DNA of 64,000 nt from a virus. Of this stretch, positions 5,192-34,254 are shown in pieces. The DNA lies in IMG/VR virus record IMGVR_UViG_3300035034_000989, positions 1 to 64,000 of that record; one strand, 5' to 3'. Every line of letters starts with the position of its first letter. The stretch's first letter is position 1. The translations under genes and the position numbers were made by a program. The notes under the pieces were generated by a model, which was given only the letters and a program-made list of their open reading frames with translations, did no database searches and had not been told where the DNA came from.

Positions 5192-5920
5192 ATGGAAGAG
5201 TTTATCATCGCCGGCTATCCCGCTTGCTATTTTGCAAGCGGTCATTCCAAGCTTTTAATTTCAGTTGGAGACAGTTGGCCAGCGGGCCACGGAGCAGTTC
5301 CAGCGGTATATGGCCCATCGGCCCACTACGAAAATCACATGGTCACTCACAGCTATCCGTATTTCCTGCATAAGATGCAAGGCGACCATGACCTATTATC
5401 AATTGCTTATCCCGGTGCAGGAATACACGGCCAGTATGAAGCATTAAAGAAGTATCTGCATATAGCTAATCGATACGATACTGTGATGGTCATACTTGGC
5501 ATGGACGCAGGAATAAGACATCATTATCGGTATGACTCACATGATTACGTATGTTCGTTAGTGCCAGGTAAATGTATAGGAAAAGAATACTTCGACAATA
5601 TCGATTTTGATTTTCTGTATGATCAATTCTGCTCTAGAATATTCGACTTCCAGTGCCTGTGTAAAGTATACAATTTTGAATTCTGGTTTGTTAACAACTG
5701 GATGGGAGATTTAAATCAATATTTGGATATCTCGGTGTTTAAGGACTTAGTAAGGTTAGACAACTATATTGACTTTGATCAGCATAGAAATGCACGCACC
5801 ATGCTCACCACCAACTACGGCAATAATATAATTCAGTCTTGCAAGCATCCTACTGCCGAAGGTCATAAGTACATTGCAAACTGGATATATAGAGTTCAGT
5901 CCGCAAAAAACATCACGTAA
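5192..5920 (+). CDS. SGNH/GDSL hydrolase-like protein
   Basis: GDSW block I, C-terminal HP..GH; ATG at 5192 follows the nrdB stop. Confidence 0.55.
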   Translation: MEEFIIAGYPACYFASGHSKLLISVGDSWPAGHGAVPAVYGPSAHYENHMVTHSYPYFLHKMQGDHDLLSIAYPGAGIHGQYEALKKYLHIANRYDTVMVILGMDAGIRHHYRYDSHDYVCSLVPGKCIGKEYFDNIDFDFLYDQFCSRIFDFQCLCKVYNFEFWFVNNWMGDLNQYLDISVFKDLVRLDNYIDFDQHRNARTMLTTNYGNNIIQSCKHPTAEGHKYIANWIYRVQSAKNIT

Positions 5921-5945
5921 TCACAAACAAACAGGACACATAAAA

Positions 5946-6257
5946 ATGTTAAAAACAAATACATTCAAGGCAAATCAAGTAGTATGTTTCAAATTGGTGT
6001 CAGGCGAAGAAGTAATTGCTAAAACCAAAGCAGAAGATGCCACCACCGTTACATTGACCTCAGCACGTACTTTAGTTGCTATGCAACAGGGCGCAGGCCT
6101 AGCGGCAATTGCTAGCATGGGAACACCCGAAGTAGAAATCGTGTTACAGAAAAGTTCTGTGATGTTTACGTATTCGCCACAGAAAGCAATTGAAGAAAAG
6201 TACGTGCAGGAAGTTTCGCCTATTGCAACAGCCACCCCAGGCAATATTATTTCATAA
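5946..6257 (+). CDS. Hypothetical protein, Sm-like small beta fold
   Basis: VVCFKLVSGEEVIAK pattern common in T4-like phage small proteins; SD AGGA upstream. Confidence 0.5.
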   Translation: MLKTNTFKANQVVCFKLVSGEEVIAKTKAEDATTVTLTSARTLVAMQQGAGLAAIASMGTPEVEIVLQKSSVMFTYSPQKAIEEKYVQEVSPIATATPGNIIS

Positions 6258-6545: not shown

Positions 6546-7289
6546 ATGGATATCAATCAAGTATTAGACGTTGACAGCTTTGACGGTATACTTACCATAA
6601 GTGATATCCATGGCGAGTATGACACTGCTAAACGAGCTGTCGACTTGGCAATGAGTAAAAATTTACTGATCGTATTTTTAGGTGATTTGTTCGACGGTGG
6701 CAACCAGCCACTTGAAACTTTAACCCTTGTCAAGAAAGTAATTGATCAAAAGCAAGGAATTATGATCATTGGTAATCACGACGACAAGTTCTATCGGCAT
6801 GCACTTGGTAACCCTGTTAAGCTCGGTCAGTCACAGACACAAACTGTACTTGACATTCCTGACATGACCATGTTCCAAGAGACATTGAAATATGTGTACA
6901 CGCACACAAGCACAAGCTTGTATGCTTATTACAATCAGTACATGTTTGCACATGCTGGGATTAGTCCTTCGTTATGGAATCTTCCTACCGTTGCAACCGG
7001 CAAGCAAAAGAGTATGTGCTTGTATGGCGAAGTAGACGGAACACGCGACGAACATGGATTCCCAATGCGGTACTACACATGGTGCGACGAAGTTCCTGCA
7101 GGATATCATGTATTTGTCGGCCACGATAGATCAGCCAAGGGAAAGCCACTTGACCAGATTGGGCAATATGCTAATTCGTCTGGTGGCACAACTTACTTCA
7201 CGGATTGCTCGTGTGGCAAGGAGCCTAACAATCCAGTTGGTGTTGCAATCATCACAGGCAATGGTGTTGAATTAATGCGAGTGTACTAA
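6546..7289 (+). CDS. Calcineurin-like metallophosphoesterase (PrpE/ApaH/Pnkp-phosphatase-like)
   Basis: SDIHG, LGDLFD, GNHD, HAG, LYGE and GH motifs. Confidence 0.85.
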   Translation: MDINQVLDVDSFDGILTISDIHGEYDTAKRAVDLAMSKNLLIVFLGDLFDGGNQPLETLTLVKKVIDQKQGIMIIGNHDDKFYRHALGNPVKLGQSQTQTVLDIPDMTMFQETLKYVYTHTSTSLYAYYNQYMFAHAGISPSLWNLPTVATGKQKSMCLYGEVDGTRDEHGFPMRYYTWCDEVPAGYHVFVGHDRSAKGKPLDQIGQYANSSGGTTYFTDCSCGKEPNNPVGVAIITGNGVELMRVY

Positions 7290-7684
7290 TGAAGCTTGCG
7301 GTAGTTGGTTCACGTTCTTTTACAGACAAAGCAACGGTATTCTTCTTTCTTGATGCATACCGCGAGACCTTCGGGGATAAGTTAGTTATTGTCTCTGGAG
7401 GTTGTCCTAATGGCCCAGATAACCATGCAGAAATGTACGGCTGGAAACATGACATACCTCTCCAAATATATCTACCCGACTGGGACAAATACGGCAAAGG
7501 TGCCGGCTTCATTCGAAATTCAGAGATTGTCGAAAACTGCGATGAAGTGATTGCATTCTGGGATGGAAAATCAAATGGCACACGAGACACCATTCGTAAA
7601 GCCGAAAAGAAAAACAAAGAAGTAATTATTGTTGACAAAGAGTTGACATTGCCTACAAAAACCATTAAGCTGTTAAGCAACTAA
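7289..7684 (+). CDS. SLOG-superfamily (YspA/DUF2493-like) protein
   Basis: VVGSR, VSGG..GPD, AG.IRN, AFWDGKS.GT motifs. Confidence 0.8.
   Translation: MKLAVVGSRSFTDKATVFFFLDAYRETFGDKLVIVSGGCPNGPDNHAEMYGWKHDIPLQIYLPDWDKYGKGAGFIRNSEIVENCDEVIAFWDGKSNGTRDTIRKAEKKNKEVIIVDKELTLPTKTIKLLSN
7643..7671 (+). promoter_or_regulatory. Possible sigma70-type promoter
   Basis: TTGACA-N17-TAAGCT at the end of the SLOG gene. Confidence 0.45.
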
Positions 7685-7783
7685 ACAACAAAGGTAGTTC
7701 AGCATGCGCGGCGCTTATCAATCACATCACATTACACTTACCTAACCGGTTCCAAACACTCAGACCGAATTACCTTATCAATC

Positions 7784-8290
7784 ATGGTTGGAGTCTTACT
7801 TACTTTTTCCATGGGATATGCAGTTTACGATACATACACTAACAATCCGTCCCCGCTTTGGGAATCAGTTAACCATGTGCATTTGAGTACATCAACCTTT
7901 CTTATATTACTTGTATACATACCAGTTGCATTCTACATTATACAGATACTTCGCATGTCATACTATTATTGCAAAGGATACGAACAATGGCTCGGCTCCC
8001 AAGCAGAACTCGACACATTCGAAGTACACCCGGCAATGGACCTCCTCCGGGCAACTATGATACTTTGCACAACATCATTTGGGCTTGGTATGATAACATG
8101 GATCATGCAGAACACATCATCAAGAACTCGTGCGCTAGAACTTGGAATTTATGTAACAGGCTCGGTGATCCTATTGGCAGTGATCGCCCCAATAACAATT
8201 GTTGCCATGCAAAAAATACGTGTGAACAACTTGAGAAAAATTGAAACATATCGCCAACTCGGCGGTGATGAATGCGACACCAGAGGATAA
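7784..8290 (+). CDS. Membrane protein, about 4 TM, paralog of the next gene
   Basis: Hydrophobic segments; shares R..Y...GY, HP and a basic C-terminal helix with 8295..8888. Confidence 0.6.
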   Translation: MVGVLLTFSMGYAVYDTYTNNPSPLWESVNHVHLSTSTFLILLVYIPVAFYIIQILRMSYYYCKGYEQWLGSQAELDTFEVHPAMDLLRATMILCTTSFGLGMITWIMQNTSSRTRALELGIYVTGSVILLAVIAPITIVAMQKIRVNNLRKIETYRQLGGDECDTRG

Positions 8291-28299: not shown

Positions 28300-29955
<1,656 letters not shown>

Positions 29956-29986: not shown

Positions 29987-30562
29987 ATGAATGTTAATGA
30001 AGTATTTTACGACGAGTTATTACACCATCCTAGTTCTAGTAAATTCAAAGCCGCTAGATTTATACACGGTGTATACGAGATTAGTGATAGATACTTCGTG
30101 GTTCTACGCGAAGAAGATGCAGAGTCAATTGAGGTAATTCATTTTAATGATAGGCATGGATGGGGAAGTCTACGTTACAATGTAAGATCGTTAGCAATAA
30201 GGCTTAATCAAACTTCTACTGTGCTGAACCTCAAGATGCACGGATTAGAGCCATTTATATTCTATGATCCTGCTCCAGCCGACTCTAAGTATTCGTATTT
30301 GCGATTCGCATCCATAAAAGGATATGACCACACAAACAACGGTGCTTGCTTTAGACGCATAATCAAAGACAACTTCGGTCACTACCGCATAACACACACC
30401 GTTGAACCTTTGCCCGATAAATGCTTTGCCCGAGGAGACTTTAAAGGTGACGGATATCAGTTGACACTGAGCACAATCTCTGTTAAAGTACTGAAACAAG
30501 AATTAACATATCACACGTTGATAGAGAAGTTTTCAATAACAACTATTGACATCAAACCGTAA
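29987..30562 (+). CDS. Hypothetical protein
   Basis: 191 aa ORF. Confidence 0.55.
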   Translation: MNVNEVFYDELLHHPSSSKFKAARFIHGVYEISDRYFVVLREEDAESIEVIHFNDRHGWGSLRYNVRSLAIRLNQTSTVLNLKMHGLEPFIFYDPAPADSKYSYLRFASIKGYDHTNNGACFRRIIKDNFGHYRITHTVEPLPDKCFARGDFKGDGYQLTLSTISVKVLKQELTYHTLIEKFSITTIDIKP

Positions 30563-30575
30563 CGATAAATATAAT
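30546..30575 (+). promoter_or_regulatory. Composite sigma70 plus late-like promoter
   Basis: TTGACA-N18-TATAAT with an embedded GATAAATA (30564-30571). Confidence 0.65.
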
Positions 30576-30621
30576 TAGCTGGATAGACCAACTAACTGCA
30601 TTTATAAGAGGGAATCTTATG
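30575..30621 (+). promoter_or_regulatory. Conserved 5' RNA element of NAD salvage genes, copy 1
   Basis: Hairpin with GG-ATAGA-CC loop, then ATAAGA-GGGAA-TCTTAT(G) RBS hairpin. Confidence 0.6.
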
Positions 30622-31698
30622 CAATCAAACAAACACGACATGGCCGTCTTGATTGGCCGCTTTCAACCGTTTCACCTAGGCCACCAATCGAACTTAGAAT
30701 ACGCAATTAAAAATTGTTCCAGGAACATTCTTATTATTGTAGGATCTAGCTTTCAGCCACGCACCATAAAAAATCCATTTACATTCGAAGAACGCAAAGC
30801 AATGATCGAAGCAGTAGTCGAGGAAATTGATCCTACTGTACACGTAATGGTTGTTGCACAGCGAGACTATATGTACGAGGATAATAAGTGGATCAAAGAA
30901 GTACAACATAGCATAAGTAGCGCACACGAGTTCTTTAGATTGCTATCCTTGACAGCAGACGGCAACATTTGTTTGGTCGGACACGACAAAGATGAGTCAA
31001 CATATTACTTGTCGTTATTCCCACAGTACAGCGTGGTCGATACTGGTGGCTTTGTTACCATGGGAGATCATGCAATTAATGCAACTGAAATACGCAACTT
31101 AATATTTTCCAAAACACCAACATTCGCAATGTCAGCAGTGCCACCTAGCACAGGCAAGAAGATTGCCGAATTTGTAAAAACAGACGCATACGTGCAACTG
31201 GTAGCCGAACACAAATTTATAGCAGACTATAAAAAGCAGTGGGCACACTCGCCGTATCCGCCATCGTTCAACACCGTAGATGCAGTCACCGTCCAAGGCG
31301 GGCATATACTTCTTGTTAAGCGCAAAGCAGAACCGGGAAAAGGTCTATGGGCATTACCAGGGGGCTTTGTTGACCCTGAAGAAACACTCGAGACAGCAAT
31401 GCTACGCGAACTCAAAGAAGAAACTCGCATAAGTGTTCCCTTGCCTATACTGAAATCTAATATAACATATCGCAGACAGTTTGATCATCCTAAGCGCAGT
31501 TTGCGTGGTAGAACATTCAGCGAAGCATTTTTAATCGAAGTACCACTTGACCACAACAAGCAACTAGCCAAAGTGAAAGGCAGCGATGATGCAGAAAAGG
31601 CACAGTGGATTCCTATAAACGATGCACTTGAAATGAGCGAACAGCTATTTGAAGATCATCACTCCGTTATCAGCATGATGGTAGCGAGGTGTAAGTAA
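30619..31698 (+). CDS. nadM: Bifunctional NMN adenylyltransferase / ADP-ribose Nudix hydrolase (NadM-Nudix)
   Basis: GRFQPFHLGH, KNPF, NAT.IR; Nudix box GG.....E......RELKEET; FEDH. Confidence 0.95.
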   Translation: MQSNKHDMAVLIGRFQPFHLGHQSNLEYAIKNCSRNILIIVGSSFQPRTIKNPFTFEERKAMIEAVVEEIDPTVHVMVVAQRDYMYEDNKWIKEVQHSISSAHEFFRLLSLTADGNICLVGHDKDESTYYLSLFPQYSVVDTGGFVTMGDHAINATEIRNLIFSKTPTFAMSAVPPSTGKKIAEFVKTDAYVQLVAEHKFIADYKKQWAHSPYPPSFNTVDAVTVQGGHILLVKRKAEPGKGLWALPGGFVDPEETLETAMLRELKEETRISVPLPILKSNITYRRQFDHPKRSLRGRTFSEAFLIEVPLDHNKQLAKVKGSDDAEKAQWIPINDALEMSEQLFEDHHSVISMMVARCK

Positions 31699-32450
31699 TG
31701 TCAAGAGTTTTTGCCAAGTATATAAATCGAGATATTGGATTAAATCACAACAAGTGTGTTGTAAGTTACCTCAGGCAATACCTCCGCCAAGAAGGCACGG
31801 AAGCATTTCGAGATGTTGTGTTTGCTATACCGGGACGAGTTGATACTCACTTCGATGCAATTATTGCGCTCGGAGAAGAGTGCAATAAATCTGAACAGGT
31901 AAAAGCGGTAATGCTTGCAAGAGCGTGTACTCATCCTCTAATAAAATCCAAAGTATTACAGAAGTTTTCGAAGTCGAGTATTCCGTACACACGAATTCTA
32001 ACTAAGGATATGCGCTCGCTTGCAAATAACAGAATACTATGCAAATACATTGACTTCAGTCCGTCGTGCTTTAGCATGTACGACGTGAAAGACATAATTA
32101 CACGTAACAGTCCGGCCGAGTGTATTGACCATTTCATAGATGGTATATGGTCCGGCGATCGTGGACGAGATGATACAAAATTGAGATTAGTAACGCAGAT
32201 AACATCTGTTAAGCCCGCCATGATTGCAAGGTTCACCGAAAAGCGATTTCGTAAAATGGAGAACACGCAAATTCTACGTTTACTAGAATCATGGCATAGC
32301 CCACGAGTACTAAAAGCAATTATCGAGCATGATATTGTACTTAACCGAGAAGCATCTGACTACGTGGGCGAGATGATGACCATGAGACAGGTTAGCGGCT
32401 CCGCTATACCTATTGGCGCAAGGAAGATATACAGGATTCTAAGCTCATGA
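31698..32450 (+). CDS. Hypothetical protein
   Basis: 250 aa ORF coupled to nadM. Confidence 0.6.
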   Translation: MSRVFAKYINRDIGLNHNKCVVSYLRQYLRQEGTEAFRDVVFAIPGRVDTHFDAIIALGEECNKSEQVKAVMLARACTHPLIKSKVLQKFSKSSIPYTRILTKDMRSLANNRILCKYIDFSPSCFSMYDVKDIITRNSPAECIDHFIDGIWSGDRGRDDTKLRLVTQITSVKPAMIARFTEKRFRKMENTQILRLLESWHSPRVLKAIIEHDIVLNREASDYVGEMMTMRQVSGSAIPIGARKIYRILSS

Positions 32451-32698
32451 TAAAATCAACAAGAATACAATACACCTATTTTGTTGGCACGGTGCAATTA
32501 GAACTCGCTGACAAGTGGGGCGCATCTCAGGCAACTGGCGGTTACGTTATAGACACAGGTGCTTGGCGAGATTTTAATCCTCGCGAAGAAAAAGGAATTG
32601 AATTTGAATTTGAGCATGACGCTTTGACTTTTTTACATCGTTGTGGCGGCACGCTCGAAGAAAGAAGTCCAGGGAAAGACCTTGGCATTAATAATTAA
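32447..32698 (+). CDS. Hypothetical protein
   Basis: ATGA overlap; FEFEHDALTF motif. Confidence 0.5.
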   Translation: MIKSTRIQYTYFVGTVQLELADKWGASQATGGYVIDTGAWRDFNPREEKGIEFEFEHDALTFLHRCGGTLEERSPGKDLGINN

Positions 32699-32712
32699 GA
32701 GGAAATCTTATG
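32669..32712 (+). promoter_or_regulatory. Conserved 5' RNA element of NAD salvage genes, copy 2
   Basis: CCAGGG-AAAGA-CCTTGG hairpin, then TAAGA-GGAAA-TCTTA(TG). Confidence 0.6.
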
Positions 32713-34254
32713 AACACAAAACTTTTTGAAAACGGCATATTAGCGGCAATACGCGAAACATACGGATCTTTATCAGACACAGACTCATACAAGTACACTC
32801 ATCCTGCTCAGTTCCCGAAAGGCACTGTCAAGATGGTAAGTTATATTGAGTCACGCGGCGGGAAGTACGACGAAGTTGTCTGGGTAGGTTTGCAAGCGAT
32901 TATTGTTGATCAGTTACTTAAACCAATCAAGCACAAGCACATTAAAAACTTGCTTGCGTTTGTTGAAGCACATTTAATGGGCAATACCGATCCTGGTTTA
33001 GAACTAGCGTTCAGCACAGTGGTTGAAGAGTATAACGGCAAGTTGCCAATACGAATTCGTGCCGCCAAAGAAGGACTGGTAATACCTGTTAAAAATGTGT
33101 TGGCGGTAGTTGAAACTACAGTTGAAGACGAACGGATCTTTCCGTTAACAAGTTATGTAGAAGCATTGCTACTACGTGTCTGGTCTCCGACAACTGTCGC
33201 AACCGAGAGTTACGAAATCAAGAAATTGATATTCGAATACCTTAAACATACAGCTGATGATCCGTCTGCAGAGATAGATCTGAAATTGCATGATTTTGGT
33301 TCGCGTGGTGCATCAAGTTCGATGACAGCCGCGCTTGCTGGGCTTGGACACTTGGCAGTGTTTAAAGGTAGCGATAACACAATTGCAAACTTCTTGGCTA
33401 AAATGGTGTATCAATCAGATACTGCGGTAGACGACTTCAGTGACGTGCCCAGTGTCTCGATTCCTGCAACAGAGCACAGCACAACAACCGCACACGGTCT
33501 GGACAACGAAATCCAGATTGTGACGCAGATGTTTGATGCTTATGCAAAGCCGGGCGCAGTGTTTGCAACTGTAATAGACTCGCGCAATTGGCTTAGGTTT
33601 GTACGCGAAATTGCCCCTTTATTCAAGCAACGCTTAATAGATTCAGGTGCCACTTGGGTCTTTAGACCCGATTCAGGGCACCCTGTAAAAACCCCCATAA
33701 AAGTGGTGGAAGAACTGGACAAGGTATTTGGGCATACCATTAATACCAAGGGCTACAAAGTCCTTAACAATGTTGCAGTTATTCAAGGCGACGGTATTAC
33801 TTCGAAAGAAGTTAAAGAAATACTTGTACACTTAACATCACCTGTGTTAAAATGGTCAGCATCAAATATGGCATTTGGTATGGGCGGCGGACTTCTACAG
33901 AAGAACGACAGAGATACACAAAAGTTTGCAATGAAATGTTGCGCTATTTTAAACAATGGAACATGGGTTGACGTTTACAAAGACCCTGCTATATTCGACC
34001 CTGATACTTGGTTAGTTGATGCAACTCAATCAAGTTTTAAGAAATCGAAAATGGGCAGACTTGAGTTGCTGTATAACACACAGACAAAAAGTTACCAAAC
34101 AGTTACCGCAGAAGACTTAGATAGCTTTAGCGGCAAATTTGGTTGGGTACACGCACTCGAAACGGTTTATGAAAGCGGCGAGCTCGTTAGAGTCATGACT
34201 CTATCTGAATTAAGGAAAAACCTTTGTATTGGAACAAGCAGTCACCAGCAGTAA
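32710..34254 (+). CDS. nadV: Nicotinamide phosphoribosyltransferase
   Basis: TDSYK..H, LHDFGSRG, GSD, PATEHS, RPDSG, IQGDG, FGMGGGLLQ..RDT. Confidence 0.95.
   Translation: MNTKLFENGILAAIRETYGSLSDTDSYKYTHPAQFPKGTVKMVSYIESRGGKYDEVVWVGLQAIIVDQLLKPIKHKHIKNLLAFVEAHLMGNTDPGLELAFSTVVEEYNGKLPIRIRAAKEGLVIPVKNVLAVVETTVEDERIFPLTSYVEALLLRVWSPTTVATESYEIKKLIFEYLKHTADDPSAEIDLKLHDFGSRGASSSMTAALAGLGHLAVFKGSDNTIANFLAKMVYQSDTAVDDFSDVPSVSIPATEHSTTTAHGLDNEIQIVTQMFDAYAKPGAVFATVIDSRNWLRFVREIAPLFKQRLIDSGATWVFRPDSGHPVKTPIKVVEELDKVFGHTINTKGYKVLNNVAVIQGDGITSKEVKEILVHLTSPVLKWSASNMAFGMGGGLLQKNDRDTQKFAMKCCAILNNGTWVDVYKDPAIFDPDTWLVDATQSSFKKSKMGRLELLYNTQTKSYQTVTAEDLDSFSGKFGWVHALETVYESGELVRVMTLSELRKNLCIGTSSHQQ

Follow-up and report, generated by a model that had tools for sequence, protein, structure and literature searches.

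In a 104-kb viral contig of the IMG/VR database (record IMGVR_UViG_3300035034_000989), the two genes for salvage of nicotinamide adenine dinucleotide (NAD), nadM-Nudix (nadM for short) and nadV, are each preceded by one copy of a two-hairpin RNA leader of ~46 nucleotides (nt). Both lie in the first 64 kb of the record, the 64,000-nt stretch analyzed here as the window. The preliminary description of this DNA had pointed to such a shared element; all of the strings it noted are present, and comparison with other loci confirms a genuine, widespread, structured leader RNA dedicated to NAD-salvage genes. More than 100 distant phage contigs, as well as Xanthomonadales, Burkholderiales, and Caulobacter, have the same architecture, built from unrelated stems, in front of nadM and nadV. 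From the comparative sequence data we propose that the leader is a translational operator read by a genome-encoded protein, with NadM-Nudix as the leading candidate in an autogenous feedback; we put the probability of this reading at roughly 0.5.

Each window copy consists of an upstream hairpin (H1), a linker, and a downstream hairpin (H2) (Table 1). The H1 stems differ in sequence and still pair, the loop A(U/A)AGA is kept, as had been observed, and both loops are closed by a G-C pair. The nadM stem is longer than the TGG/CCA first recognized, with TTAGCTGG facing CCAACTAA, 7 of 8 positions paired, and a C.A mismatch at 30579/30591. The distance from loop to ATG is exactly as reported, 31 nt before nadM and 30 nt before nadV, and the final 17 nt do agree at 16 positions, the single difference lying in the H2 loop. 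The predicted hairpin of UAAGA and UCUUA over the ribosome-binding site is likewise found: the Shine-Dalgarno (SD) sequence occupies the H2 loop and the AUG the 3′ arm, placing H2 to control initiation. The nadM start codon (30619-21) sits within that arm, and the A of the nadV AUG (32710-12) is the last stem base of H2. The nadV H1 falls inside the 3′ end of an 83-codon open reading frame (ORF), whose stop codon lies in the 5′ arm of H2; its AAAGA loop is a recurrent natural variant (also in L124, L248, L266, and L228), and it is flanked by a nadV-type signature, AAGU...CAU, which is seen at other nadV leaders as well.

Minimum free energy folding gives two hairpins for both leaders, at -7.9 kcal/mol for nadM (z -1.25) and -10.6 kcal/mol for nadV (z -2.0). 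Folded alone, the nadM H1 and H2 reach -3.5 (z -2.9) and -3.8 kcal/mol (z -4.3), and the nadV H1 -8.1 kcal/mol. The nadM and nadV starts are the most alike among ~12,000 gene-start pairs (13/14), and the 17-mer TAAGAGGRAATCTTATG is found nowhere else, whether the window is searched at up to 3 mismatches or the whole record at up to 2. Among the differences listed for sister-strain contigs from two other (lake) metagenomes are two in the 3′ arm of the nadM H1, C30589T and A30591G; the first turns a G-C pair into G.U and the second the C.A mismatch into C-G, so both are compatible with an RNA helix. Because the z-scores of the whole leaders are modest, the window by itself is unconvincing, and what decides the matter is comparison with other loci.

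The plan of the window leaders recurs at both genes in 11 distant IMG/VR loci, with helices unrelated in sequence: a helix capped by G-AUAGA-C, a short A/C-rich linker, and a second helix with a 5-nt loop, GGAGU or GGAUU, that ends at the AUG. A covariance model (R1) built from 17 leaders located new copies in further loci solely before nadM and nadV. Applied to 80 viral and 80 bacterial nadV loci, it matched 82 and 45 times, respectively, and every match was on the coding strand. After retraining, the model (R2) had 207 matches, 119 in viral and 88 in bacterial sequence, of which 206 were on the coding strand; its sole matches in the window are the two leaders, at 31.1 and 29.5 bits, both of which had also been among the 115 rows used for training. 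Both window copies are recovered as well by a descriptor search that uses no model.

A covariance model of related nadM and nadV leaders had been suggested as a check on the element, and it finds compensation throughout: among 113 distinct sequences, all 14 pairs show changes on both sides, and G.U pairs occur. Paired cells amount to 89.2%, versus 54% in shuffled controls and 29-42% with a slid partner, and the covariation score is 0.82 versus 0.19 (shuffled) and ~0.12 (slid), figures that are somewhat inflated because the alignment was fitted to the model, although the compensation is still plain in the raw rows. Across the family, H1 is a helix of 7-8 base pairs (bp) of free sequence with a fixed, G-C-closed A-N-A-G-A pentaloop, in which position 2 is free; the closing pair is G-C in 105 of the 113 sequences. 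H2 is a weak helix of 5-7 bp whose 5-nt loop carries the SD purines and which either encloses the start codon or lies right beside it; 96% of its cells are paired, and they covary. The linker between the two is constant in neither length nor sequence and can contain inserts of more than 15 nt.

Other parts of the preliminary description do not extend to the family. A pseudoknot between the AGA of the H1 loop and the UCU of H2 is unsupported, as the H2 3′ arm varies (UUU, CUU, UCU, UAU, UUA) while the loop is constant; pairing of the H1 loop with the start-codon region (YUAUG), which we also considered, fits only a few leaders and was rejected. The GCATT taken for a common box is out of register: in the nadM leader it lies at 30598-30602, 2 nt past the extended H1, and it is unconserved in other nadM leaders, the conserved signature of nadV leaders being GGCA(U/A) immediately 3′ of H1. 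The element is not particular to phages, since it is equally at home in chromosomes of Xanthomonadales and Burkholderiales. Near-identity of the last 17 nt is confined to the window lineage and a few others. The exact 17-mer has 108 matches in IMG/VR, none of them before nadM or nadV homologs, and is itself lineage-specific. Identity between H2 copies is 0.594 within and 0.529 between genomes, with the window in the top 5 of 31 phages; with so small a rise we rejected the general rule that H2 follows the genome.

The leader is almost confined to NAD-salvage genes. With R1, 106 of 115 matches lie directly before a NadM or NadV homolog. One of the nine others is the nadV leader of L004, overlooked through a start-codon assignment artefact, and eight precede small ORFs of unknown function, four of which belong to one Cys/His-rich family of 108-110 amino acids (phrog_12218) located between leader and nadM; with this family, the leader extends to a third class of genes. 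Whole sequences agree. The 104-kb record holds two R1 matches, the nadM and nadV leaders, in keeping with the earlier remark that the element was not seen before other genes, and three whole bacterial genomes hold 2, 2, and 1, each at nadM or nadV leaders. In 151 whole genomes drawn evenly from the order that contains Lysobacter (Xanthomonadales), there are 22 matches in 18 genomes at E up to 0.001, and each of the 22 is correctly oriented and sits directly in front of nadM or nadV. In L007, nadV is split into two separately translated halves (5315-6061 and 7248-8044) ~1.2 kb apart, and each half has its own two-hairpin leader. Among cultured phages, Xanthomonas phage vB_XciM_LucasX carries the motif before both genes.

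Rfam 15 contains no family that matches at its gathering score in the window and 16 loci, and none at E up to 10 in window positions 30500-32800 and L007 3900-5400; the models for NAD+-I and NAD+-II, with which comparison had been recommended, are likewise without a match at E up to 10. In the searchable literature on nadV and NAD leaders we found no description of such an element.

The distribution of the motif points to its reader. Of 56 bacterial nadV loci with nadM next to them, 46 carry the motif, versus none of the 24 that lack such a neighbor. The motif and NadM-Nudix are both missing from two genomes that have nadV only (a Paraburkholderia and a Caulobacter), and the nadM-bearing congeners of these two carry the motif. 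The five phage contigs with the motif before nadV and no nadM within 3 kb all encode NadM elsewhere. Conversely, in two genomes the motif precedes a nadM that stands alone, with unrelated genes after it (in one of them, at L330 (G041:C14:19400-24500), an SPFH/Band 7 gene), and in these a NAPRTase-family gene was undetected with positive controls, genome completeness not being established. In every case tested, then, the motif implies NadM-Nudix, and NadV is dispensable. We considered NadV as a universal reader as well; the motif with nadM in these two genomes, of unestablished completeness, makes it unlikely.

The loop of H1 exists in variant classes. The descriptor search identified leaders with the H1 loop C-AGAGA-G or C-AGUGA-G, in which the closing pair is flipped, together with a nearly invariant H2, CAC-GGAGA-GUG; the C-AGAGA-G class is carried by L153, L173, L190, L195, L202, L196, and L009, most of which R2 missed. 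In L128, L129, and L130, the next relatives of the window after L122 and L123, the loop is GUGGA or AGUGGA in place of AUAGA, and the architecture and nadV-type flanks (AAGUCC...GGCAUAA) are retained. The class is concordant within a genome: both leaders are G-ANAGA-C in ~22 genomes and C-AGRGA-G in 5, and no genome combines two classes. L128 and L129 have the -UGGA loop in both leaders; in L130 the nadV loop alone could be parsed. Such a concerted change in both leaders is predicted by a co-evolving, genome-encoded macromolecular reader and is awkward for a fixed ligand pocket.

As a translational operator, one ~46-nt cis-acting leader copy would serve each NAD+ salvage cistron. A trans-acting reader would recognize the H1 loop and perhaps H2 too, and its binding would stabilize H2 or block the 30S subunit, such that nadM, nadV, and occasional accessory ORFs could be throttled together. 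The window nadV has no promoter of its own and is read from the nadM transcript; its own leader copy would give it separate control of initiation. Were NadM-Nudix the reader, its binding might be modulated by NAD+, nicotinamide mononucleotide (NMN), or adenosine diphosphate (ADP)-ribose. The arrangement resembles known autogenous operators (E. coli thrS, read by ThrRS, and those of gp43, gp32, and RegA in phages T4 and RB69) in that a short structured leader by the SD and AUG controls initiation of each cistron, with a hairpin loop as the recognition element, and in that operator and reader would co-evolve. It differs in that the reader is predicted, in that one type of operator serves two or three genes, and in that phages and bacteria share it; H1 also does not mimic the anticodon arm of a transfer RNA, having A for U33 if read as a 7-nt loop. 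The coat-protein operators of MS2, Q-beta, and PP7 are also small hairpins with the start codon in the 3′ arm, a free stem, and a fixed loop, but each of these, in RNA phages, is one hairpin with a bulged A, whereas here the invariant loop is on a second, upstream hairpin. A CsrA/RsmA target would have two or more GGA motifs, at least one in a hairpin loop at the SD; H2 fits, with a GGA in a short loop that overlaps the SD, H1 and the linker have no GGA, and the element is restricted to NAD-salvage genes and present in Caulobacter, which to our knowledge lacks CsrA. Like the lambda-type boxB sites of N proteins, H1 has a purine-rich pentaloop with one free position, and position 2 could flip out here; boxB loops, however, are GNRA-like, with G first, and act with boxA in antitermination, not at ribosome-binding sites.

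Several observations weigh against a protein reader, and against NadM-Nudix in particular. We know of no report that NadM-Nudix binds RNA. The motif is distributed in keeping with the NadM tree (9 changes versus 28 when shuffled), and the association with NadM may therefore be mere co-inheritance of a cassette. Few independent lineages underlie the concordance of the loop classes, which could also come from copying between leaders. The motif is absent from many cultured phages that encode NadM and NadV, namely PC-Liy1 (KVP40-like), Matisse, phi5, B1VFA, Munch, and K64-1. A model from bacterial leaders only (R3) ranks the nadM leader first (9.7 bits) and the nadV H1 third (8.1 bits) in the window, scores that are too low to be significant as an independent test. 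Finally, the sigma70-type promoter of nadM lies directly in front of H1 and overlaps a second box, GATAAATA (30564-71). Judging from these positions, transcripts starting ~6 nt past GATAAATA would keep the nadM H1, and those starting ~7 nt past TATAAT would begin inside it, so early nadM transcripts from the sigma70-type box may lack an intact H1.

The preliminary description attributed co-regulation of the two enzymes to an NAD-related metabolite or to a protein such as NadM-Nudix. Its core, a shared, gene-specific structured RNA, is borne out; as to the reader, the comparative evidence leans towards a protein, probably NadM-Nudix, over a riboswitch. In a riboswitch, the hairpins and linker would fold round a metabolite of the NAD pathway (NAD+, NMN, ADP-ribose, nicotinamide, or phosphoribosyl pyrophosphate), locking H2 over the SD and AUG, which indeed lie in the 3′ hairpin. 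A tight tie to one metabolic pathway, in phages and distant bacteria alike, is typical of riboswitches, and the guanidine-II (mini-ykkC) class sets a precedent: in it, too, small hairpins with covarying stems and conserved loops stand in tandem, the linker varies in length, and the 3′ hairpin is near the SD. The guanidine-II loops, however, are both ACGR and kiss, whereas the ANAGA and GGAGU-like pentaloops here are not complementary. The NAD+-I (nadA motif) and NAD+-II (pnuC motif) riboswitches are likewise cis-regulatory RNAs before NAD-metabolism genes, and class II also occludes the SD; their folds are internal-bulge domains or a pseudoknot, at nadA and pnuC, in contrast to two plain hairpins at nadM and nadV. 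Binding of a ligand is difficult to reconcile with so little conservation among unpaired positions, only the five of the H1 loop, since those of the H2 loop are accounted for by the SD, or with a linker so variable. The H1 loop and closing pair also switch class (G-AUAGA-C, C-AGAGA-G, GUGGA) in both leaders of a genome, the motif never occurs at nadV of bacteria that lack NadM, and no Rfam riboswitch was matched even at permissive E values. We thus consider metabolite sensing unlikely, and doubt that the leader, common to bacteria and phages, is a very small riboswitch of a new class in which two tandem hairpins sense a metabolite of the NAD pathway. If it were one, it would be the third NAD-related riboswitch class and the first known to control NAD+ reconstitution, a counter-defense, in a phage.

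Transcript starts bear on a further alternative. Many phage nadV leaders have a TTGACA-17-TATAAT/TATACT promoter that ends exactly 17 nt before the loop, so that only 1-3 nt would separate the predicted 5′ end from H1; an ATAAATA box lies 3-7 nt before H1 in nadM leaders of many other phages, and the window nadM has elements of both kinds. The leader could hence be a constitutive module with no dedicated reader, in which a 5′-terminal H1 guards against decay and H2 presents the SD, matching the initiation rates of the genes. The weakness of H2 (-2.5 to -3.8 kcal/mol) and the near-identity of its window copies fit this possibility. A generic stabilizer, however, needs no loop and closing pair that are invariant across phyla, its confinement to NAD-salvage genes (22 of 22 matches in the 151 genomes, 2 in the record) would be unexpected, and the element also occupies internal positions, as at nadV in the window and in bacterial nadM-nadV spacers. 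We judge this explanation improbable.

It is very improbable that the similarity arose at the DNA level, either as recombination scars, the 17-nt direct repeats at 30605 and 32696 flanking a discrete 2.09-kb nadM-orf-orf module, or as a DNA operator or cruciform. The nadM H1 does overlap the promoter, and H2 is somewhat more similar within than between genomes, as given above. But G.U pairs are tolerated in the helices, all R2 matches save one are on the coding strand, the distance to the start codon is fixed, and free arms about a fixed asymmetric center are the opposite of an operator for a dimeric repressor. With H2 copies dissimilar in most genomes, this account explains at most the identity at 16 of 17 positions, not the element. 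Chance resemblance of two ribosome-binding sites beside two trivial hairpins, to which the weak single-sequence z-scores and a 3-bp stem unconvincing on its own might have pointed, is refuted by covariation and gene specificity and has a negligible probability.

NadV and NadM-Nudix are reportedly a two-enzyme phage route that rebuilds NAD+ and counters NAD+-depleting bacterial immunity; Xanthomonas, Stenotrophomonas, Lysobacter, and Burkholderia use the two enzymes for salvage. That a conserved RNA element is dedicated to this pathway and stands on each of its cistrons implies that the output of the pathway is actively tuned, and comparable control of this pathway is not described in the searchable literature. 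If NadM-Nudix is the reader, a metabolic enzyme would moonlight as an RNA-binding repressor. The element is small (<50 nt) and modular, and cultured systems exist in phage LucasX and in Lysobacter enzymogenes.

Table 1. Features of the nadM-nadV region (window positions) and of the phrog_12218 loci (positions within each locus).
Feature	Position	Strand	Description	Basis
nadM promoter	30546..30575	+	sigma70-type; TTGACA 30546-51, 18-nt spacer, TATAAT 30570-75	12/12 consensus
nadM leader H1	30575..30595	+	5′ arm 30575-82, loop AUAGA 30583-87, 3′ arm 30588-95	sequence, fold
nadM leader linker	30596..30602	+	G-poor, unpaired	family alignment
nadM leader H2	30603..30621	+	UAUAAGA 30603-09, loop GGGAA 30610-14 (SD purines), UCUUAUG 30615-21	fold
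nadM-Nudix	30619..31698	+	NMN adenylyltransferase fused to Nudix ADP-ribose pyrophosphatase, 359 aa	Pfam CTP_transf_like + NUDIX
ORF	31698-32450	+	250 aa, between nadM and nadV	ORF list
ORF	32447-32698	+	83 aa, between nadM and nadV, overlapping nadV leader	ORF list
nadV leader H1	32669..32685	+	CCAGGG 32669-74, loop AAAGA 32675-79, CCUUGG 32680-85	sequence, fold
nadV leader linker	32686..32695	+		family alignment
nadV leader H2	32696..32712	+	UAAGA 32696-700, loop GGAAA 32701-05 (SD), UCUUA 32706-10	fold
nadV	32710..34254	+	nicotinamide phosphoribosyltransferase, 514 aa	Pfam NAMPT_N + NAPRTase
phrog_12218 ORFs	L008 3597-3926; L148 1586-1909; L163 583-906; L179 1587-1910		function unknown	

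The 104-kb record is probably from a jumbo phage, as CheckV estimates it to be only 29% complete. Near-identical DNA is present in lake, aquatic, and ice metagenomes, and no RNA data set with this region was listed. Phage homologs of the window NadM-Nudix share 39-50% identity with it, and the NadV proteins of L122-L124 are 57-61% identical to that of the window; the closest relatives found are thus at 50% (NadM) and 61% (NadV), no close relative of the region being available, and megablast of the region against cultured phages gave 0 matches. Neither ORF between nadM and nadV has a match among Pfam or PHROG families. At 28330-29955, two genes before nadM, lies the gene for a GroEL-type chaperonin (Cpn60_TCP1, phrog_5725).

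The box GATAAATA, probably a promoter specific to the phage, has 10 copies on the plus and 3 on the minus strand of the record, and in three cases it stands exactly 33 nt before a gene start. Further positions are 20781, 43182, 48070, and 65323, and the box resembles the T4 late promoter TATAAATA. The sequence TAACGATAAATATAA is common to the region upstream of nadM and that of the gene at 65364. A terminator scan flagged the reverse complement of the nadM H1 (minus strand, 30597-30573) as terminator-like, with a T-rich run after the hairpin; this call is most likely an artefact of the neighboring AT-rich promoter.

A weak leader copy stands before a radical S-adenosylmethionine ORF in L010 (6065-6105). 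The nadV leaders of Klebsiella phage Matisse (L291) and Enterobacter phage phi5 (L293) have no ANAGA; both have an H2-like hairpin, AACGU-GGAGU-ACGUU, at the start codon and an upstream hairpin with a different loop (AGAAC in phi5), and may be further diverged relatives of the family. One metagenome contig aligns with the window solely over 39 nt of the nadV leader (32669-32707), with both flanks unrelated; it may carry the same leader in another genomic context or be chimeric.

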